Counted from the stretch's first letter, positions 1-36,598 are shown. The stretch: 64,000 nt of DNA from Candidatus Parcubacteria bacterium (GCA_023444045.1 JAEZRQ010000001.1:66000-129999), one strand, 5' to 3'. Notes: generated by a model not told the origin, from the sequence alone. Translations and numbers: made by a program.

Positions 1-5
1 CTAGT

Positions 6-133
6 TGCGAAACTACACTTTGGGTATCCGTAAAGGATCCTACTTATGCTGGTCGGCGTGCCCGTTCCATTGCACAAGTAGGATAAATGCCAAGATTGGC
101 AAAAATCCTTTACAGATTAAGCATAGTTTCGCA
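6..133 (+). ncRNA. candidate structured RNA of unknown class, possibly truncated by the window edge
   Basis: Nested complementary segments found by eye: 6-15/124-133 (10 bp), 30-36/107-113 (7 bp), 37-45/76-84 (9 bp), 88-92/97-101 (5 bp). A T-rich tract follows from about 144. No ORF. Confidence 0.3.
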
Positions 134-212
134 TATTTAGTATACATTTTTTTATTTTTATTTTCAATGCTTTAATTATTGTCACGACAAGCTAATTTTA
201 GCAAAAAAATAA

Positions 213-242
213 TTAGACAACGGAGACAAAAAAGTGTAAAAT
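213..242 (+). promoter_or_regulatory. possible sigma70-type promoter for the 272.. operon
   Basis: TTAGAC (213-218), 18-nt spacer, TG-n-TAAAAT extended -10 (237-242), about 30 nt upstream of the ATG at 272. Confidence 0.3.
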
Positions 243-271
243 GGAAGTAAAGAAGATATATTTTTTGATTT

Positions 272-1249
272 ATGGCTATAAATAGGGCATTAAATTTTTT
301 TTATATTTCAGAGAGATTATCCACGCTCTCTACTTTAGTGAAGATGAGCGGTAAAATTAATGTTTTATTATTTCATAATCATTCTGAAAATTTTTATCAA
401 TACTTTTTTAAAATATTATATGATTGGGATCTTGTTGATTTAAATACGGACCAAAAAAGTGAAGAAGCAATCGATTTATTTTGTGAAGATAAAAAACTAA
501 TTGTACAGGTCTCCGCTACAGCCACAAAATCCAAGATAGAAGACTCGATAAAAAAACTTAATATCTCTAAATACAGTGGTTATAAATTTGTATTTATTTC
601 TATTACGGAAGATGTAAAAGACCTTAGAAAAAAAACTTTTTCTAATCCGCAAGAAATTATTTTTGACCCAAATGTTGATATTTATGATATTGCAAGGATA
701 CTCTCTGATATCAAAAAATTTAGTATAATAAAACAGGAAGAAACTAAAGAATTTTTAATTAAAGAGTTGGGTATGGCTGGACAGACTAAACCACTAGATC
801 TTAATTTAACAAAAATTATTAATATTTTATCAAAACAGAATTTAAGCGAAACAGAGAGCGCCATTACAATAAAAGGCTTTAATATAGATGAAAAAATAGA
901 ATTTAACAACCTTGTTGAGATTAAGGATGTGATTAATGAATTTGCCGCTTATCAACCAAAGTTAGATAAAATATATACCGAGTTTGATTCTCAGGGGTTT
1001 AATAAAAGCACGTCAATACTTAGTTTGATGAAAAGCGAATATATAAAATGTCGCAAAAATTCAAAAAATGAAGAGTTATTTTATTTAATTTTTGACAGAT
1101 TAAAGAGCAAAATAATAGAGAGTAAAAATTTTTTAGACACAGAAGAAGAAATTTTGGATATGTGCCTCTATATAATAATGGTCGACTCTTTTGTTAGGTG
1201 TAAAATTTTTGAAAATCCAAGCAATTATAAATATGCTCCTACCAGATAA
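272..1249 (+). CDS. SMEK-domain-like protein, putative effector-side component of an ABC-three-component (ABC-3C) system
   Basis: 325-aa ORF. From memory, the N-terminal ~100 aa (HSENFYQYFFKILYDWDL..AIDLFCEDKKLIVQVSATATKSKIEDSIKKL) resembles the SMEK domain. The ORF overlaps the next gene by 17 nt. No nuclease or protease motif was recognised by eye. Confidence 0.5.
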   Translation: MAINRALNFFYISERLSTLSTLVKMSGKINVLLFHNHSENFYQYFFKILYDWDLVDLNTDQKSEEAIDLFCEDKKLIVQVSATATKSKIEDSIKKLNISKYSGYKFVFISITEDVKDLRKKTFSNPQEIIFDPNVDIYDIARILSDIKKFSIIKQEETKEFLIKELGMAGQTKPLDLNLTKIINILSKQNLSETESAITIKGFNIDEKIEFNNLVEIKDVINEFAAYQPKLDKIYTEFDSQGFNKSTSILSLMKSEYIKCRKNSKNEELFYLIFDRLKSKIIESKNFLDTEEEILDMCLYIIMVDSFVRCKIFENPSNYKYAPTR

Positions 1250-1460
1250 TATACATCCTGAAAACAGTATTTATTATAATGGCTCTTTGGTTTTAAAAGA
1301 GCTACAAGTTTCTAATTCCCAAGATATAATTTCTCTTTATGAAAAAGTGAAAGCAAATAAAGAGATTAGTTTCACAGTTTTTGTATTATGTCTTGATTGG
1401 TTATTTTTAATTAACACTGTTGAGTTTAACAAAAAAGGAGTGGTAAAATTATGTTTTTAA
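1233..1460 (+). CDS. small protein, putative ABC-3C middle component
   Basis: 75 aa from the ATG at 1233 (the ORF track starts at a TTG at 1191, same frame). It overlaps both the upstream gene (17 nt) and the downstream ATPase gene (10 nt). Its position matches the effector-MC-ATPase order of ABC-3C systems. Confidence 0.45.
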   Translation: MLLPDNIHPENSIYYNGSLVLKELQVSNSQDIISLYEKVKANKEISFTVFVLCLDWLFLINTVEFNKKGVVKLCF

Positions 1461-3172
1461 AATCTCTTGTTATAAAAGATGAAAATAAAATAATCCGCCA
1501 AATTAATTTCCACAAAGGAATTAATCTTATAGTAGACAAAACTCCGCAAGGAGATACTAAGGAAACTGGCAATAATGTAGGAAAAACAACGATTTTAAAG
1601 TTGATAGATTTTTGTTTGGCTGGTGATCCGAAGGAAATATATACGGACCCAGAAACAAAAAAGGATGTATATCAGTTGGTTAAAAATTATTTAATAAAAA
1701 ATAAAATAATAATTTCGCTTGTATTAAAAAGGGACTTGGATGATGTTGCATCTGATGAAATTGAGATAGAAAGAAATTTTTTATCCTATAAGGAAAAAAT
1801 ACAAAGTGTTAATGGCCATAATTTTAATAACGAAGAATTTATAGAACAGTTATCAAGGTTGATAATTCCCGAACTAATTACAAATAAACCAACATTTAGA
1901 CAAGTAATTTCTCATAATATTAGATATAAAGATGAAAATATAAATAATACACTGAAAACACTTGATAAATATACTACGGATGCCGAATACGAAGCGCTCT
2001 ACTTGTTTTTGTTCGGTTGCTATTTTGATAAAGGTGATTTAAAACAGGAGATTTTAGAGAGACAAAAACAAGAAGTAAATTTTAAAACCAGGCTTGAAAA
2101 ACATCAAAGTAAAAGCGCTTATGAAGCGGCACTCGCCATTATTGAATCCGATATCTTCAAATTAAATAAAAAGAAAGAATCTTTAAACATAAATAAAAAC
2201 TTTGAAACAGACTTAAATGAACTAACATCGGTTAAATATAATATTAGTAAGTGTGCTTCAGAAATAAATCAATATACAACAAGAAAGGATTTGATAATGG
2301 AAGCCGAAACGTCTTTAAATTTAAAAAAGACAGATATAGATTTGAATCAACTCAAGTTAATTTATCAACAGGCAACGGACAGAATAGACGGAATACAAAA
2401 AACCTTTGAAGATTTAGTGAATTTTCATAATCAGATGATAGAAGAGAGAATAAGATTTGTTATAAAAGAATTACCAGAAATAGAACAGAAACTTAGATTA
2501 AGCAAAATAAGTCTTAAAGAATATCTCGCAGAAGAAGAGCGTTTAACTTCGTCTATTGCTAAAAGTGATGCATTTGAAGATTTGGAAGAACTGATTATAG
2601 AATTAAATGGTCTTTATCAAAAAAAAGGCGAGTATGACAAAACAATTAGTCAGTTAAATGAAGTAGAAAAAAACATCAAACACTATTCATCACAATTATA
2701 TAAAATGGAGGAAGAGCTTTTTTCTGACGAATTTAGTGAAAAAGTTCGAACTCAAATCTATAAGTTCAATGAATATTTTGCTGACATTTCAAATCAACTG
2801 TATGGCGAAAAGTATCTTGTTAATCCTGAAATTGACGAAACAAAAAATGGACGATTGTATAAATTTAGCGCATTTAACACTAATCTTAGTTCTGGCAAAA
2901 AGCAAGGTGAAATTTCCTGTTTTGACATAGCTTATACGTTATTTGCTGATAGTGAAGGAATTTCTTGTTTGCATTTTTTATTGAATGATAAAAAGGAACT
3001 CGTACATGATAATCAGTTGGTTAAAATAGCGGAATTTGTTAATAGGTCTAACATGCAATTTGTTGCCTCTATTCTAAAAGATAAATTACCAGAAGAACTA
3101 AATAATAAAGAGTATTTTATTGTTGAACTATCTCAGAGCGATAAATTATTTAGAATAGAAAGTGATAATTAA
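1451..3172 (+). CDS. ABC/SMC-like ATPase with a long coiled-coil insert (DUF2326-like; ABC-3C ATPase component)
   Basis: Walker A GNNVGKTT at aa 40-47. A charged heptad-rich region spans about aa 200-440. Near the C-terminus are an ABC-signature-like NLSSGKKQG followed by a Walker B-like LHFLLND. Confidence 0.7.
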   Translation: MFLKSLVIKDENKIIRQINFHKGINLIVDKTPQGDTKETGNNVGKTTILKLIDFCLAGDPKEIYTDPETKKDVYQLVKNYLIKNKIIISLVLKRDLDDVASDEIEIERNFLSYKEKIQSVNGHNFNNEEFIEQLSRLIIPELITNKPTFRQVISHNIRYKDENINNTLKTLDKYTTDAEYEALYLFLFGCYFDKGDLKQEILERQKQEVNFKTRLEKHQSKSAYEAALAIIESDIFKLNKKKESLNINKNFETDLNELTSVKYNISKCASEINQYTTRKDLIMEAETSLNLKKTDIDLNQLKLIYQQATDRIDGIQKTFEDLVNFHNQMIEERIRFVIKELPEIEQKLRLSKISLKEYLAEEERLTSSIAKSDAFEDLEELIIELNGLYQKKGEYDKTISQLNEVEKNIKHYSSQLYKMEEELFSDEFSEKVRTQIYKFNEYFADISNQLYGEKYLVNPEIDETKNGRLYKFSAFNTNLSSGKKQGEISCFDIAYTLFADSEGISCLHFLLNDKKELVHDNQLVKIAEFVNRSNMQFVASILKDKLPEELNNKEYFIVELSQSDKLFRIESDN

Positions 3173-3227
3173 TTTAGCAATTATTATTTTTTGTTTTGTT
3201 TTGTTTTTGTAATAACTTTAGAATGTT

Positions 3228-3788
3228 ATGAAAAATAATTTTGCTTATCAGTTGGGTATTGTAAGAGAGGGGGTTTATATTTATTCCCCTGTTTTTATGT
3301 ATCTTTTTTTAAAAATGAGAGAAACCTTTGGTACAAACAATAATGACGTAGATAACATTGTTAGTAAAATATCAGGTTTAAGCTGTGGCCAGTGGCCACA
3401 ACAATATCAAGAAGATTTTGAAAAACTATTTATATTAGATGAAAAACTGGTTAATTTACAAAGAGAATTTATATATTTTTCAATATTTATTTTTTCTGAG
3501 TTCGCTTTTAATTATATTGATAAAAATGATCAAGAAAAAAAGGAATTCACGCTAGATTACTTATTTGAAATATTTAAAGACAATAGACAACCGTGGTTTA
3601 TTAAACCCCCTAGTCAAGATGCTTATAATAAATATAGGAATTCGGATAATCCTATTTTAGTTCTTCATAATGAAATCAGTAAAGTTTCAGAAGAAAAAGA
3701 CGTTTTATTTTTAGCAGACTTTGTCATTGTAATTACAAGTATTGTAAAATTTTATATTGGGTCAACAGTAAAAAAAATCTTTGAATAA
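3228..3788 (+). CDS. hypothetical protein (first gene of a 4-gene coupled block)
   Basis: 186-aa ORF, 55 nt after the ATPase gene with no hairpin in between. Contains hydrophobic stretches (FIYFSIFIFSEFAF, LADFVIVITSIV). No family recognised. Confidence 0.55.
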   Translation: MKNNFAYQLGIVREGVYIYSPVFMYLFLKMRETFGTNNNDVDNIVSKISGLSCGQWPQQYQEDFEKLFILDEKLVNLQREFIYFSIFIFSEFAFNYIDKNDQEKKEFTLDYLFEIFKDNRQPWFIKPPSQDAYNKYRNSDNPILVLHNEISKVSEEKDVLFLADFVIVITSIVKFYIGSTVKKIFE

Positions 3789-3797
3789 TTTAAAAAT

Positions 3798-4934
3798 ATG
3801 GCTAGTTGGAGTTTTAGAAGAAGAATAAAAATAATACCAGGAGTTAGATTAAATTTTAGCAGAGGAGGTATAAGCACTTCTATCGGAATTAGGGGCGCAA
3901 ATTTTACTTTTGGTAAAGATGGAACATATTTAAATACAGGAATTCCGGGAACAGGTATTTATAAAAGACAAAAAATTTCTTCTTCATCTAAATTAAATAG
4001 TAGTTCAAGAACAGAGGAAAACAATAATACAAACCACCAACCAACCATAGAACAAAAAGATAATATTTTTAGTGTAGAACCTGATAAAATTACTAGTCAA
4101 AATATGGAGGGCGTAAAGCAGTCCATAATAGATGCTCATAATCAACGCAAAGAATTAGTTACAGACATTGAAAGAGTTAAAAAAGATTTATTATGGTCAA
4201 GGGTAAAATTATTTTTTGCTTATCTATTTATTATTGGATTTGTTTATAAAAAAATAGTTGAAGAAATAAAGTTAAATATTGTAAAACAAAAAGAATCTAT
4301 CGTAGAACTGGAAAAACAAAGAAATGAATCCTATGTTCAGCTAGATACCGATTTTGATAAGGACACCTCTTTAAAATACGAGAATGTTCTAGAAAGTTTT
4401 AAAGAACTAATGAAGGTGGAAAAGATTTGGGATATCACCAGGGAAGAAGAAAATGACAAAGCAAAAACTAGATCATCAGCATCTAGGGCAATTGAGAGAA
4501 AAGACATAAAAATAGAACTTAAAGACCTAGAAGATATCAAATATAATAAGCAGGCTTTGTGTTTTTGTAATGCTAATGGGGCGGATTTATATTTTTATCC
4601 AAGTTTTATTGTTATACAGGGAAAGGATAATTTTGGTGTTATCGGCCTAGATGAGGTAGAGTTTAGTTTTAATAGCGCTAAACTTATTGAGCAAGAAAAA
4701 GTTCCTAAAGATTCAGAGATTATAGAATATACTTGGTTTAAGGTTAATAAAAATGGTCAACCAGACAAAAGGTTTAAGGATAATTATCAAATACCAGTCG
4801 TAAAATACGGCGTTATTAACTTAAAAACTAATAATGGGTTAAATGAAGAATACCAATTTAGTAATTATTTAGTAAGCGAAAAATTTGCTAATGCATTTTT
4901 AGATTTTAAAAAAATAGTAGAGAGTTTAAACTAA
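3798..4934 (+). CDS. DUF4236-domain membrane protein
   Basis: The N-terminus SFRRRIKIIPGVRLNFSRGGISTSIGIRGANFTFGKDGTYLNTGIPGTGIYKRQ matches the remembered DUF4236 pattern. It is followed by an S/N-rich linker, one TM segment (LFFAYLFIIGFVY), coiled-coil segments and a beta-rich C-terminal domain. Confidence 0.65.
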   Translation: MASWSFRRRIKIIPGVRLNFSRGGISTSIGIRGANFTFGKDGTYLNTGIPGTGIYKRQKISSSSKLNSSSRTEENNNTNHQPTIEQKDNIFSVEPDKITSQNMEGVKQSIIDAHNQRKELVTDIERVKKDLLWSRVKLFFAYLFIIGFVYKKIVEEIKLNIVKQKESIVELEKQRNESYVQLDTDFDKDTSLKYENVLESFKELMKVEKIWDITREEENDKAKTRSSASRAIERKDIKIELKDLEDIKYNKQALCFCNANGADLYFYPSFIVIQGKDNFGVIGLDEVEFSFNSAKLIEQEKVPKDSEIIEYTWFKVNKNGQPDKRFKDNYQIPVVKYGVINLKTNNGLNEEYQFSNYLVSEKFANAFLDFKKIVESLN

Positions 4935-5557
4935 TGTTTAACTTATTTAAATTACAAGAAAAGATTGGCGGTGAAATCGCCTACTATAATTTAACCGACT
5001 GGTGGCTTAAAACATTTAGTAAACAAGAACAGGATTATATAGTAAAAACATTTCAACCTTTGGGCGGTTCGGGGGTAGATTTAATTAAAGGTGAAATTCA
5101 ATATAGTAGTGGTAGTGCGGTTTCTTTATTATCCAACTTGGCGGGGTGGTTTAAAAATGATAAGGATAGAGAAATTGGCTATAAATTATTAGATAAAGCC
5201 GAAAAACTAATTACTGATAATACAGACACATTGAATATTCATTTTTTTTATCAAAACAAGTTAGAATTTTATTATCGTTTTAGAGAAATAGACCAAGAAT
5301 CCTTGAATATTGCGATTGAGGCCTGTAAAAAGCAAATTGAACTTTCTCCTCGTGCTATTTTAGCTTTTAAAAAAGAATACGAACATGAAAAATTGCCAAT
5401 GCACACTGGCTATGAACAACTGGCTATAATTTTGGAAAAACAAAGTAAATTTAATGAAGTGATTGCGTTGTGCGAGAATGCTAAAAATCAAGGCTGGGGA
5501 GGAGATTGGGATAAAAGAATAGAAAGGTGTATGAATAAAATGAAAAATAATCTTTAA
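4934..5557 (+). CDS. hypothetical helical-repeat (TPR-like?) protein
   Basis: 207-aa ORF. Its ATG overlaps the stop of the upstream gene (TAATG). The helical C-terminal half ends in GWGGDWDKRIERC. No family recognised. Confidence 0.55.
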   Translation: MFNLFKLQEKIGGEIAYYNLTDWWLKTFSKQEQDYIVKTFQPLGGSGVDLIKGEIQYSSGSAVSLLSNLAGWFKNDKDREIGYKLLDKAEKLITDNTDTLNIHFFYQNKLEFYYRFREIDQESLNIAIEACKKQIELSPRAILAFKKEYEHEKLPMHTGYEQLAIILEKQSKFNEVIALCENAKNQGWGGDWDKRIERCMNKMKNNL

Positions 5558-5562
5558 ATTTA

Positions 5563-6306
5563 ATGGAAAACTATTATACTCTTTTAGAACAGTTAAGAAC
5601 CATTGCGGATAAATGTTTAACTAATCACCCAGAACCTAAAAGCGAAAAAGAGGCTTTACTACTTTATGCTGTTGCCAAAGCAGATAAGACACTTTGTGCC
5701 GTAGCTCTCTTGTGTCGCAATGGTATGGGTGAGGACGCTTCAATTTTATGCAGAAGTGTTTTTGAATTAGCTTTAACGATAGAATACATTTTTAAAGATT
5801 TAACCGATGGAATGGCTAAGAGATATTTTTCTTATGACTGGATTCAAAGAAAAAAGATGTATGGGTATATGGCAAGGTCTGGTCGATTTCAGAAATATTT
5901 ATTATCACCAGAAAGTCAAAAGATAATTACAAGTATTAATAAAGAAGCAAATAGAGTAAACAAAAAATATAATTATGGTAGCAGTTGGTCAGACAAGAAT
6001 ATTGCCGAAATGGCTAAAAGTGTAGGATGGTTAGATTTATATGAAACCGCTTATAGAATACAGTGTAATTTTAGTCATTCTAATCCGAGATCATCCAATG
6101 ATTATTTTAAAGAAGAAAATGGGCGTTTAGTTTTAAATTCTGGTCCAAGCGAGAATTTAGTATCCGAAACACTTGTTACAATTTTTAATTCTTATCTCCA
6201 TATTGTTAGAAAGATTAATGATTATTTTAAAAAAGGATTAAGTATGGAAATTAAAAAAATTGAGGACGACTTTGTAAGTCTATTGAAAGCCTCTAATAAC
6301 AGTTAA
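5563..6306 (+). CDS. hypothetical all-alpha protein, DUF5677-like, with an HEPN-like Rx6H motif
   Basis: 247-aa ORF starting 5 nt after the upstream stop. Contains YRIQCNFSH (R165..H172; nt 6055-6078). The DUF5677 assignment is from memory only. Confidence 0.45.
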   Translation: MENYYTLLEQLRTIADKCLTNHPEPKSEKEALLLYAVAKADKTLCAVALLCRNGMGEDASILCRSVFELALTIEYIFKDLTDGMAKRYFSYDWIQRKKMYGYMARSGRFQKYLLSPESQKIITSINKEANRVNKKYNYGSSWSDKNIAEMAKSVGWLDLYETAYRIQCNFSHSNPRSSNDYFKEENGRLVLNSGPSENLVSETLVTIFNSYLHIVRKINDYFKKGLSMEIKKIEDDFVSLLKASNNS

Positions 6307-6314
6307 TTTACCAA

Positions 6315-6427
6315 ATATTCCATCAAAAAAGTTTTCCAACCTTTGCGCTTAGCCACCCCATTTGGAAAAGACGAGCTTTCAGGCTCGTTTTTTCTTTGAT
6401 ATAAGGCGCAAAATTGAGTTTTACTAG
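6315..6427 (+). repeat. copy A of a ~113-nt two-hairpin intergenic element
   Basis: Aligns by eye to 6776-6888, with about 88 percent identity over the first 60 nt. Hairpin 1 is TTTTCCAA (6332-6339) paired with TTGGAAAA (6362-6369). Hairpin 2 is the terminator at 6371-6394. Confidence 0.8.
6371..6394 (+). terminator. intrinsic terminator (first one after the 272-6306 gene string)
   Basis: ACGAGC (6371-6376) / GCTCGT (6383-6388), then a T-run. Confidence 0.75.
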
Positions 6428-6475: not shown

Positions 6476-6775
6476 ATGAGCATACAAGAGTGGTTAATGT
6501 CATTTTTTCTGATTGCAACTATCGTGGGTGTTATAAAGTTAAATAAAAAGATTAAAGCAGGAGAAGTAAATAACAACCCACTTACGAGTGCGGAAAAAGT
6601 TTTTACAGCTTTGGCCGGACTCGCAATTCCTTTATTGGCTGTAAACGGAATTATGTATTACAGCTTGAGAAAGAAGTATCCAGCCAAAGCAAAACAAGCA
6701 AACAAAATTGGATGGATCACTTTATTAATTGCAGTTGGGCTGGGTGTTATAGTGACGATATTACAAATTCAATAA
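6476..6775 (+). CDS. small membrane protein (about 3 TM)
   Basis: 99-aa ORF with hydrophobic segments FFLIATIVGVI, ALAGLAIPLLAV and WITLLIAVGLGVIV. It has its own AT-rich upstream region with TATAAT-like boxes. Confidence 0.6.
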   Translation: MSIQEWLMSFFLIATIVGVIKLNKKIKAGEVNNNPLTSAEKVFTALAGLAIPLLAVNGIMYYSLRKKYPAKAKQANKIGWITLLIAVGLGVIVTILQIQ

Positions 6776-6888
6776 ATATTCCATTAAAATAGTTTTCCAA
6801 GTTTTGCAGTTAGTCACCCCATTTGGAAAAGACGAGTCTAAAAGCTCGTTTTTTATGTTATATAGGGATAAAAAATAGATTTTTACTA
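6776..6888 (+). repeat. copy B of the ~113-nt two-hairpin intergenic element
   Basis: Hairpin arms at 6793-6800 / 6823-6830 are identical to copy A. Substitutions cluster in the loops. Confidence 0.8.
6832..6855 (+). terminator. intrinsic terminator
   Basis: ACGAG (6832-6836) / CTCGT (6845-6849), then a T-run. Confidence 0.7.
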
Positions 6889-7543: not shown

Positions 7544-7610
7544 TAATATGTTGTATTAAATAATTTTTCAGGTTTTTCGGCTAGTAGACCTCAAAAAAGA
7601 GGAGTGAAAT

Positions 7611-7647
7611 AACCCTAATCTGCCAGCTGACGGAAGGGTTTTTTTAT
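7611..7647 (+). terminator. probable intrinsic terminator
   Basis: AACCCT (7611-7616) / AGGGTT (7635-7640), then T7. The loop is long. Confidence 0.5.
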
Positions 7648-8730: not shown

Positions 8731-8762
8731 AAGACTGCATATAACCAAAGCAGTCTTTTTTA
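8731..8762 (+). terminator. intrinsic terminator
   Basis: AAGACTGC (8731-8738) / GCAGTCTT (8750-8757), then a T-run. Confidence 0.75.
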
Positions 8763-36219: not shown

Positions 36220-36598
36220 GGGGATGTCGGGCTTTCGATAGTGAGACTCTCTCTTTAAAGGCGCAAGACGTGGTAAGTCACCACGTAAAAAGACTTAAAA
36301 AAACAATTGGCAAAAAATCTGCCGCATTTACTTGGTTAGTTCCAAGTTATGCTCCTGTTGTCGCTTAATATAGCCACAACCATCAGCCTAGCGACGCTTT
36401 ATAGCTAGTTACTGGTGTCATTTATAAAGCTAGAACTCTTAGGTGCTTTCCTTGAGAGTCTTGAAAACAAAGAAAGATAGTATTAATTTTTTTCTTCTGG
36501 CTAATTAGAATTAATGCGAAAATTTTTAACCAGAATAATCTTGTAGAAGCGTTTAAAGTGACTTGCTAGACATGGGTTCAACTCCCATCATCTCCACA
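36220..36598 (+). ncRNA. ssrA: tmRNA (SsrA)
   Basis: The 5' GGGGATG pairs with the 3' CATCTCC, including a G3:U pair. T-arm ATGGG-TTCAACT-CCCAT. An internal tag ORF ends at the TAA at 36365-36367 (..SYAPVVA). It starts directly after the smpB stop. Confidence 0.85.

Follow-up and report, generated by a model that had tools for sequence, protein, structure and literature searches.

The closest described relatives of the locus analyzed here are the short (type II) Lamassu/ABC-3C systems with a SMEK effector (LmuA-LmuC-LmuB), in which three overlapping genes encode the effector, the middle component, and the ATPase, in that order. SMEK is a nuclease domain known from short-pAgo systems (PMC10810196), and it appears in the list of short-Lamassu effectors (PMC12663957). 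Our literature search found no solved structure or tested mechanism for a SMEK-type Lamassu; the best-studied relative of short Lamassu is DdmABC. A second precedent is given by the cargo hotspots of integrative elements, where a conserved backbone carries a variable slot with differing ATPase-based candidate defence genes, and where insertion at the 3′ end of a tRNA gene duplicates the tRNA end. DUF5677 has been reported as enriched beside serine recombinases in that setting, and a DUF5677 ORF that was assayed was not among the protective ones (PMC12632615).

Our window is a stretch of 64,000 nt of DNA from a Candidatus Parcubacteria bacterium, in which ORF calling gave seven same-strand genes between 272 and 6306 (g1-g7), with small genes downstream (s1-s5). 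Patescibacteria are a group from which few described defence systems would be expected. Compared contigs and loci are given L-numbers, and L006 9863-13512 corresponds to window 134-3783. From g1 to g7, the junctions are an overlap of 17-59 nt, an overlap of 10 nt, a gap of 55 nt, a gap of 9 nt, an overlap of 1 nt, and a gap of 5 nt, a layout that agrees with the sequence-only reading of this DNA, including its 55-nt gap. That reading joined the seven genes in one transcription unit and took the last four as accessory or effector modules of an ABC-3C-like core. We favor, at a probability of roughly 80%, a mosaic of three separately travelling modules that a mobile element carries and that are probably transcribed together through stacking, and not a seven-gene system. 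The first module comprises three genes:

272-1249, + strand: g1, LmuA-like effector component, with a SMEK_N nuclease domain at residues 11-148 and an ABC-3C CTD10 at 178-314
1233-1460, + strand: g2, ABC-3C middle component MC6 (LmuC-like; Pfam MC6, 1.6e-28)
1451-3172, + strand: g3, DUF2326 ABC/SMC-like ATPase (LmuB-like; Pfam DUF2326, 1.6e-21), overlapping g2 by 10 nt

Both domains of g1 were found by Pfam (SMEK_N, E = 2.7e-34; CTD10, 3.9e-28), and PADLOC matched the pAgo-associated REase N-domain (2.3e-14). This likens g1 to the SMEK-APAZ partners of short pAgo, although there is no APAZ domain and no Argonaute gene here, and the SMEK_N of g1 is fused to the ABC-3C CTD10 instead. Residues E39, D68, Q79, S81, T83, and K88 are invariant across 54 homologues. 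The AF2 model (pLDDT 80.9) has an alpha-beta-beta-beta-alpha-beta core (H38-50, E66-71, E76-81, H86-101, E105-110), and the motif reads D..QxS..K, compared with D..ExK of the PD-(D/E)XK fold. Foldseek gave the model no significant match to nucleases (Shedu nuclease, probability 0.14); its best match was the YydD-YydB model 9a6c_B (probability 0.99, E = 0.03), in which YydB is what we take to be an ABC-3C effector component. The g2 gene overlaps g1 by 17 nt from ATG 1233 or by 59 nt from TTG 1191; the MC6 match begins at residue 17 of the TTG form, and g2 was called as 75 aa on L006. PADLOC matched g3 to LmuB (7.9e-11) and to PDC-M68B (6.2e-36, over residues 13-555), and g3 carries a Walker A motif (GNNVGKTT) at residue 40, a signature (LSSGKKQ) at 479, and FLLND at 509.

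With LmuB-type ATPase motifs, a small MC6 gene just upstream of the ATPase, and an LmuA effector domain with its CTD, g1-g3 is, judged by sequence, an ordinary SMEK-type short Lamassu, an already known kind of anti-phage system with its own nuclease. The earlier description of an ABC-3C core without a recognisable enzymatic effector was wrong, as the SMEK_N match in g1 shows. The trio differs from short Lamassu elsewhere in that it sits on a small Patescibacteria integrative element, lacks a terminator of its own, and continues into genes unrelated to it. If the solved Lamassu complexes are a guide, a self-contained module of this kind would hold the LmuA-like protein by CTD10 through an LmuB-like ATPase dimer and MC6. 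Sensing of foreign DNA ends or replication intermediates would release or oligomerise the SMEK nuclease, and DNA would be degraded, a mechanism carried over here from Cap4-type systems to the SMEK type.

The mobile element is defined by features on both sides of the array:

1-133, no strand assigned: right part of a conserved, strongly structured non-coding region between leftward backbone genes and the cargo arm
134-271, + strand: upstream region associated with the trio, holding the best g1 promoter-like site
6343-6421, + strand: right-end repeat (attR-like), duplicating the 3′ end of tRNA-His together with its terminator (6365-6394)
6804-6882, + strand: third repeat copy, after s1 (6476-6775)

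The seven genes make up the entire rightward arm of a ~13.2-kb element with two serine recombinases, located at the 3′ end of tRNA-His. Upstream of g1, the window's contig carries the recombinases, an AAA_25 gene, and small leftward genes. At the left end, tRNA-His (L006 2785-2858) adjoins a 504-aa serine recombinase, and direct repeats of the tRNA 3′ end lie at both ends, L006 2841-2919 and window 6343-6421 being 77% identical, with the same layout in L096. The repeat has three copies, of which the left one, at tRNA-His, is outside the window and the one at 6804-6882 is likely a remnant of a second insertion. Window 1-133 is 95% identical to L010 and L096, and the homology, to L010 as to L096, stops at 133; the conserved non-coding region had no Rfam match, and L006 9700-9865 folds at -51.9 kcal/mol (z -4.3). 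Large serine recombinases seldom target tRNA genes, which counts against the tRNA-insertion picture, and no clean empty site was found among the related loci compared. Set against the described cargo hotspots, the host here has an ultra-small, low-GC Patescibacteria genome, and the element is only ~13 kb.

Comparison by blastn with sibling elements, which share 92-96% identity in the backbone and 84-92% in g5-g7, separates the array into parts. Window 134-3783 is absent from L010/L096, where g5-g6-g7 come straight after the backbone and both the trio and g4 are missing, and is replaced in L008/L009/L020; L008/L009 carry g5 and the start of g6 with the same backbone. In one sibling element, a 1008-aa PHP-ATPase occupies the place of the trio and g4. 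The block formed by the trio and g4 would fill a variable slot, empty in one sibling and holding the PHP-ATPase in another, with g5-g6-g7 as the resident cargo of the element family.

The syntenic L021 locus complicates this picture, as it keeps g5-g7 without backbone, trio, or g4. There, tRNA-His is followed by ~300 nt and then by g5-g7, with no recombinases and no right-hand repeat, and similarity to the window sequence picks up again just before g5. Such an arrangement would be expected if g5-g6-g7 were chromosomal island genes beside tRNA-His and the element, from the recombinases to g4, had inserted between the tRNA and g5. We regard this as quite improbable: in L006 and L096, tRNA-derived repeats enclose g5-g7 (left at the tRNA, right after g7), there is no repeat copy between g4 and g5, and in the sibling elements the same backbone is accompanied by g5-g7, or by g5 and the beginning of g6. 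Given L021, the right boundary drawn for the element, and the reading of g5-g7 as mobile cargo and not as a fixed island remnant, are probable only.

Within the mosaic, the second module is a single gene with its upstream region:

3173-3227, + strand: 55-nt gap, corresponding to the natural 5′ flank of the g4 cassette and homologous in nucleotide sequence to the g4 locus in a different element family
3228-3788, + strand: g4, protein of 186 aa, assigned to no known family, whose one strongly hydrophobic segment is C-terminal (159-177, hydropathy)

No match to g4 was obtained in Pfam, PADLOC, NCBIfam, or PHROG. The gene is rare, with homologues in four clusters only, all of 186 aa with a conserved N-terminus, and is found only in Patescibacteria-type contigs. 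In another element family, it is the first rightward gene, beside other cargo, with g6 (85% identity) four genes further; g4 and g6 occur in L001-L005, where the trio, g5, and g7 are absent. As nucleotide homology to that family begins exactly at the g3 stop, g4 is probably a small cassette imported with ~55 nt of its own upstream region.

The third module contains the remaining genes:

3798-4934, + strand: g5, DUF4236 protein (Pfam DUF4236, 8e-22; phrog_17982, 4.4e-71)
4934-5557, + strand: g6, soluble protein of 207 aa, assigned to no known family; start and g5 stop overlap (ATGA)
5563-6306, + strand: g7, DUF5677 protein (Pfam DUF5677, 3.9e-33), the last gene of the element

The g5 protein begins with the DUF4236 beta-meander. 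A disordered linker leads to a long helical hairpin whose tip (131-154) is hydrophobic, and the C-terminal domain is beta-rich and gave weak PH-like matches. Its AF2 model (pLDDT 78.5) matched nothing in the PDB below E = 0.001 by Foldseek and matched phage proteins with DUF4236 in BFVD. Full-length homologues number more than 860, and 252 species in GTDB, mostly Bacteroidota, carry the gene. At the best 80 loci among these species, g6/g7 are present in two (sibling elements) and g1-g4 in none, and no neighbour family recurs in more than 14, so g5 is an autonomous, widely transferred gene. The g6 protein has a partial match to phrog_22434 (4.6e-12), and its copies are 75-96% identical in sibling elements (one given as 204 aa). 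For g7, 918 representative clusters were found, with R64, W142, and H172 invariant. A role of g5-g7 in membrane-associated exclusion or defence is our guess. It is doubtful, though worth naming, that they form a new three-gene Patescibacteria module for defence or superinfection exclusion, its expression now under the Lamassu promoter, in which case the two systems would be co-regulated, maybe layered, and not one machine.

These distributions bear directly on the proposal that g4-g7 are accessory or effector modules of the core in one functional system. All seven genes lie close together on the same strand, the first canonical terminator comes only at 6365, and g4-g7 apparently lack strong promoters of their own. 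The whole array is also 98-100% conserved in L007, L016, and L017, being found again as an identical array in at least two further samples (L016/L017). The array is stable within its own lineage, and acquired cooperation is compatible with that, but the full-array carriers are near-identical copies of one element and not independent. Had the proposal been right, homologues of g4-g7 would be expected to travel with ABC-3C loci; instead, g4-g7 adjoin none of the five other SMEK_N/CTD10-MC6-DUF2326 trios (43-49% identity). In L018 the trio is immediately followed by a tRNA-His-like end and a strong terminator, and in L104 by a convergent gene. Conversely, g5-g7 occur without the trio in L010/L096/L021 and g4 with g6 in L001-L005, g5 is solitary at 78 of its 80 best loci, and g1 already supplies a nuclease. 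Trio and four genes found apart in both directions is the very outcome that the sequence-only reading had named as its refutation. A single seven-gene system is, in our judgement, very improbable indeed.

Base composition had also been noted as different here. The difference is real and modest (28.4% GC at 272-6306 versus 34.6% in the rest of the window; gene means 28.8% versus 35.4%, Mann-Whitney p = 5e-4), and low GC extends beyond the array to ~8.6 kb. The hand-counted values of 17-18% and 55% were extremes of single 60-nt lines, which span 5%-58% across the window.

Whether the stacked modules share a transcript depends on terminators and promoters, for which two further features matter:

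3151-3198, + strand: hairpin of A-U and G-U pairs only in the predicted fold, straddling the g3 stop codon, with a T/G run 3′ to ~3210
3721-3750, + strand: promoter-like site in the 3′ end of g4 (TTGTCA-18-TAAAAT, score 10/12), 47 nt upstream of g5

The clean terminator proposed earlier at 6371-6394 was borne out at 6365-6394 (dG -18.3 kcal/mol, z -5.3), and neither the consensus scan nor the hairpin/T-run scan found a GC-stemmed terminator in any intergenic gap from 272 to 6365. Since the absence of terminators within ORFs is uninformative, the entire observation hangs on the single 55-nt gap. This gap had been described as free of hairpins, which is refuted by the 20-bp hairpin at 3151-3198, formed between the 3′-terminal 22 nt of g3 and the front half of the gap (dG -14.4, z -3.75; 1 of 200 shuffles equally stable). 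More broadly, the absence of any stem-loop with a T-run before 6371 holds for GC-stemmed terminators in the gaps and fails for hairpins with T-rich runs at 3151-3198 and 3265-3298. The first of these was rejected as a canonical intrinsic terminator: a U/G-rich tail is present, but by our reading of the fold the stem lacks any G-C pair, unlike all convincing terminators nearby with their G/C-rich cores, and the hairpin is absent from the consensus-scan output. It is at most a weak terminator or pause site. The second, a GGGGG/CCCC hairpin followed by TGTTTTTAT within g4, was dismissed, as it is not kept in the g4 homologue. Downstream, where every small gene had been credited with its own terminator, terminators follow s1 (6827-6854), s3 (7604-7647), and s5 (8731-8757), and the hairpin and T-run scan found none after s2 or s4.

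In promoter scans, the best site for g1 was TAGACA-17-TAAAAT at 214-242. The g5 promoter of sibling elements (TTGATT-17-TAGAAT with TGn) sits in a 125-nt stretch missing from the window. The g4 promoter reads TGTGATAAT in its native contexts, L001 and L100 carrying TTGATT..TGTGATAAT at the gap-equivalent position, and TGTAATAAC in the window, where the -7 T is gone and the -35 region replaced, leaving a degraded extended -10 (TGT AATAAC) at 3208-3216 inside the gap. With the g5 promoter absent and the -7 T missing from the g4 promoter, transcription from the g1 promoter is likely to read through; as the modules also abut without GC-stemmed terminators, the arm is probably one transcript that starts from 214-242 and ends at the tRNA-derived terminator of the right-end repeat.

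It is possible, if on the unlikely side, that there are two or three transcription units instead, with g1-g3 ending at the hairpin and T/G run (3151-3210) and g4-g7 or g5-g7 starting at 3208-3216 and/or 3721-3750. The stability of the hairpin against 199 of 200 shuffles, the U-rich tract 3′ to it, and the origin of the gap as the inherited promoter-proximal region of g4 all point this way, and the site at 3721-3750 is nearer consensus than the same codons in homologues (TTATTA..CTAAAT or TCAAAG). However, the 5′ arm of the G-C-free hairpin lies in translated sequence, neither the -7 T nor the -35 region of the inherited promoter has survived, and TAGAAT at 3219-3224 would start transcription inside the ATG. 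In this AT-rich DNA, promoter-like sites are also no commoner in the consensus scan than in shuffles (60 versus 48.8 ± 8.8), so the 3721-3750 site is a candidate internal promoter indistinguishable from chance.

We therefore retain one long transcript from g1 to 6365 as plausible, within which some transcripts may start at 3208-3216 or 3721-3750, and some may stop at the hairpin. Co-transcription as first proposed gains some support from the missing terminators and promoters, although its no-hairpin premise fell; it arises from head-to-tail stacking, with no evidence for a seven-gene machine.

In conclusion, 272-6306 would be the complete rightward cargo arm of a tRNA-His element, built from three modules with separate histories, and tight same-strand packing on a mobile element is no evidence of a multi-gene system. 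The locus shows, in small and clean form, how an integrative element in an ultra-small Patescibacteria genome can carry a modular cargo slot, and it places three uncharacterised families in context: g4, the widespread autonomous DUF4236 (g5), and DUF5677. The promoter sequences lost here suggest that promoter loss may leave passenger genes reliant on a defence operon inserted upstream of them.

The seven same-strand genes (g1-g7) at 272-6306 comprise a short Lamassu/ABC-3C trio with LmuA-, LmuC- and LmuB-like members (g1-g3), followed by four further genes:

272-1249, + strand: g1, Pfam SMEK_N (E = 2.7e-34) and ABC-3C CTD10 (3.9e-28)
1233 or 1191-1460, + strand: g2, ABC-3C middle component MC6 (1.6e-28)
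1451-3172, + strand: g3, DUF2326 ABC ATPase (1.6e-21); PADLOC PDC-M68B (6.2e-36) and LmuB (7.9e-11)
3228-3788, + strand: g4, no match in Pfam, NCBIfam or PADLOC
3798-4934, + strand: g5, N-terminal DUF4236 (8e-22)
4934-5557, + strand: g6, no match in Pfam, NCBIfam or PADLOC
5563-6306, + strand: g7, DUF5677 (3.9e-33)

g1 overlaps g2 and g2 overlaps g3; gaps of 55 nt and 9 nt precede g4 and g5, respectively; g5 and g6 overlap by 1 nt, and 5 nt separate g6 from g7. Shine-Dalgarno-like motifs precede only 4 of the 42 window genes. Elsewhere in the window lie a tmRNA gene (36220-36597), then three tRNA genes, and a 23S rRNA gene from 63555 whose upstream neighbour is a protein gene, not 16S.

An exact look-up of g1 found the contig of the window as L006 (ENA ERZ27268862, 291 kb; window position = L006 position - 9729), where two serine recombinases (504 and 247 aa), an AAA_25 protein and small genes lie on the opposite strand upstream of g1, with a SpoU methylase and a penicillin-binding protein farther left. 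ARAGORN located tRNA-His(gtg) at the recombinase end, in L006 2785-2858, and further copies of the 3′ end of this tRNA with its terminator lie at window 6343-6421 and 6804-6882. Because the recombinases are upstream, tRNA-His is at the left and the tRNA-end repeats follow g7, g1-g7 make up the entire rightward arm of an element of ~13.2 kb integrated at tRNA-His, and the terminator that the sequence-only reading took as the first clean one belongs to the right-end repeat and derives from the tRNA. The 6343-6421 repeat was also considered as a generic genome-wide terminator repeat, but the 64-kb window holds only two copies and the third is the tRNA-His end. The 6804-6882 copy brackets the small downstream gene s1 (6476-6775), which encodes a 99-aa protein with three hydrophobic segments; this pair looks like what is left of a second insertion there, and the three-copy layout is also found in the sibling element L096. 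The non-coding stretch of window 1-133 and ~215 nt more upstream (L006 9512-9862) is 95% identical between sibling elements, and for L006 9700-9865 the computed folding energy is -51.9 kcal/mol (z -4.3), the closing stem being formed by window positions of about 7-16 and 122-133. An Rfam search of this conserved region gave no match; it may encode a small RNA of the element, or act as an origin or in regulation.

Comparison with sibling elements, whose backbone (the leftward genes and non-coding region) is 92-96% identical at the nucleotide level, revealed a mosaic arm. In L010 and L096, g5-g6-g7 directly follow the backbone (84, 75 and 91% amino-acid identity) and window 134-3783, containing the trio and g4, is absent, while in L008, L009 and L020 the slot of the trio and g4 is filled by a 1008-aa PHP plus SMC_N/AAA_21 ATPase, followed by g5. 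This slot protein (L008 3568-6594, L009 3498-6524, L020 785-3811; all three domain matches weak) is a candidate uncharacterised defence ATPase, and in L020 it is followed by g5 and then, in the absence of g6, by a divergent DUF5677 protein. L021, from a different Patescibacteria genome that shares the host flank, carries tRNA-His and then g5-g7, without backbone, trio or g4. In L001-L005 and L100-L102, g4 is the first rightward gene of another recombinase element, after a divergent 310-aa gene, and is followed by cargo consisting of a PycTM protein, or 173-aa and 190-aa proteins, an Ltp lipoprotein, a g6 homologue (85% identity) and a GIY-YIG protein; trio, g5 and g7 are absent from these elements. 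Nucleotide homology between the window and this other element family starts exactly at the g3 stop codon and spans the entire 55-nt gap, and g4 has an origin of its own. The full array was otherwise found only in L007, L016 and L017, which are 98-100% identical copies of the same element. L006 and L017 are 99.0-100% identical over ~1300-6100 and only 88-93% over g1 and its upstream region (window 93-1292), with 23 amino-acid changes spread across both g1 domains, which suggests that the LmuA-like effector allele was replaced by recombination.

The wider distribution of these genes also bears on whether they belong together. For g5, we found >860 full-length homologues at ~50% identity, with source names including Flavobacterium, Chitinophagaceae, Bacilli and Aenigmarchaeota, and a scan of one genome per species placed it in 252 species, mostly Bacteroidota. 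Among the best 80 g5 loci of these 252 species, g6/g7 occurred in only 2, both sibling elements, and g1-g4 in 0; there was no conserved g5 partner gene, as no neighbour family reached more than 14 of these 80 loci. In three Aenigmarchaeota loci (L013, L014 and L015), a g5 homologue (60% identity), an AAA_21 ATPase and a 160-aa gene interrupt an NAD-biosynthesis cluster (nadA, nadC, then aspartate dehydrogenase, nadE), pointing to cross-domain transfer of g5-type DUF4236 proteins. Five further SMEK_N/CTD10-MC6-DUF2326 trios (43-49% g1 identity) are each a compact three-gene unit, with DUF4236 or DUF5677 following in 0 of 5; four have an acetate kinase gene, an HTH/Mrr island, a convergent gene or a PIN pair at their 3′ side, and the fifth reaches the contig end. 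The similar, distantly related element in L018 has the trio as its final module, followed by GGCACCCCA and a terminator with a 15-bp stem (L018 11060-11115); GGCACCCCA is identical to the tRNA-His 3′ end, and therefore this element may also be located at tRNA-His. The sequence-only reading had proposed that g4-g7 could be accessory or effector modules of the ABC-3C-like core, a functional link that these comparisons refute in both directions, with the trio found without g4-g7, and g5-g7, as well as g4 with g6, found without the trio.

A single C-terminal segment of the g4 product is hydrophobic, and its homologues form only four clusters, all of 186 aa with a conserved N-terminus, one homologue with the source name 'Patescibacteria group bacterium'. 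In its AF2 model (pLDDT 78.5), g5 begins with a six-strand meander, the DUF4236 part; a disordered linker and a long helical hairpin, whose tip (residues 131-154) is hydrophobic, come next, and the C-terminal domain is rich in beta strands. Foldseek against PDB returned nothing below E = 0.001; the resemblances, PH-like or to long hairpins, were weak. Phage-encoded DUF4236 proteins match g5 in PHROGs and BFVD (in BFVD they are the sole matches, unannotated), and IMG/VR scans with g5, g6 and g7 detected no close relatives in viral contigs. Sequence searches of PDB with g1, g6 and g7, and with g5 and g7 profiles, gave nothing meaningful. Invariant residues of the g7 family, which comprises 918 representative clusters, are R64, W142 and H172; g7 was considered as a HEPN RNase, as it contains R-x6-H (RIQCNFSH), but R164 is not conserved, so this assignment was dropped. 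PADLOC gave only 3 weak matches, to PDC-S52, for 58 g7-family members, and DUF5677 has been reported as enriched beside serine recombinases in Bacillota and was not among the protective tested ORFs (PMC12632615). None of these features links g4, g5 or g7 to the trio, and an exclusion or defence role for them would be a guess.

A shared transcript is a separate matter. A strong terminator (dG -18.3 kcal/mol, z -5.3) lies at 6365-6394, and a consensus scan and a hairpin/T-run scan found no GC-stemmed terminator in the intergenic gaps of 272-6365. Two hairpins had been overlooked. One, of 20 bp at 3151-3198, comprises the g3 end and the first half of the gap (dG -14.4, z -3.75) and is followed by a T/G run; by our reading of the computed fold its stem has no G-C pair, while the convincing terminators nearby all have a G/C-rich core, and it is at most a weak pause site or terminator. 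The other, a GGGGG/CCCC hairpin plus TGTTTTTAT at 3265-3298 within g4, could end the trio transcript if g4 started at M24, but all g4 homologues have 186 aa with a conserved N-terminus and L001 does not keep the hairpin, which is a codon by-product. Upstream of g4, both native contexts have TTGATT..TGTGATAAT, and the window has TGTAATAAC, which lacks the -7 T, and a T/G run takes the place of the -35 region; TAGAAT at 3219-3224 is too near the ATG to serve as g4 promoter, as transcription would start after its A. The L010 g5 promoter (TTGATT-17-TAGAAT with TGn) sits in a 125-nt stretch absent from the window, where g4 ends 9 nt before g5. The top promoter-like site for g1 is TAGACA-17-TAAAAT (214-242). 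Inside g4, TTGTCA-18-TAAAAT (3721-3750) is a candidate promoter for g5-g7, of a type no more frequent here than in shuffled sequence. Read-through from the g1 promoter to 6394 is likely (probability about 0.6), and some internal initiation or partial termination may occur, with a lower probability. Co-transcription, as first proposed, is plausible and somewhat strengthened. The claim that each small downstream gene has its own terminator held for s1, s3 and s5 and failed for s2 and s4 in the hairpin plus T-run scan, and the suspected composition shift is real (28.4% GC in 272-6306 vs 34.6% in the rest of the window; gene means 28.8% vs 35.4%, p = 5e-4) but modest, the 17-18% and 55% quoted for it being single-line extremes.

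The ABC-3C-like core had been described as having no recognisable enzymatic effector, yet the SMEK_N of g1 is a listed one: SMEK is described as a nuclease domain, APAZ-fused in short-pAgo systems (PMC10810196), and is listed as one of the effectors particular to short Lamassu systems (PMC12663957). The g1 product matches the REase N-domain of pAgo-associated proteins (PADLOC, 2.3e-14), and E39, D68, Q79, S81, T83 and K88 are invariant in 54 homologues. Its AF2 model (pLDDT 80.9) has an alpha-beta-beta-beta-alpha-beta core; Foldseek gave no significant nuclease match, the top match being a YydD-YydB model (probability 0.99, E = 0.03), and the predicted nuclease-domain fold is supported by profile. 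By analogy with Cap4-type structures (PMC12663957), the ATPase dimer and middle component would sequester LmuA through its CTD, and sensing of DNA ends would set the nuclease free. Taken together, the region is of a known kind, a small element inserted at a tRNA gene whose variable slot carries a SMEK-type short Lamassu stacked with passenger modules unrelated to it, and it is the host group of this Lamassu-bearing element that is unusual.
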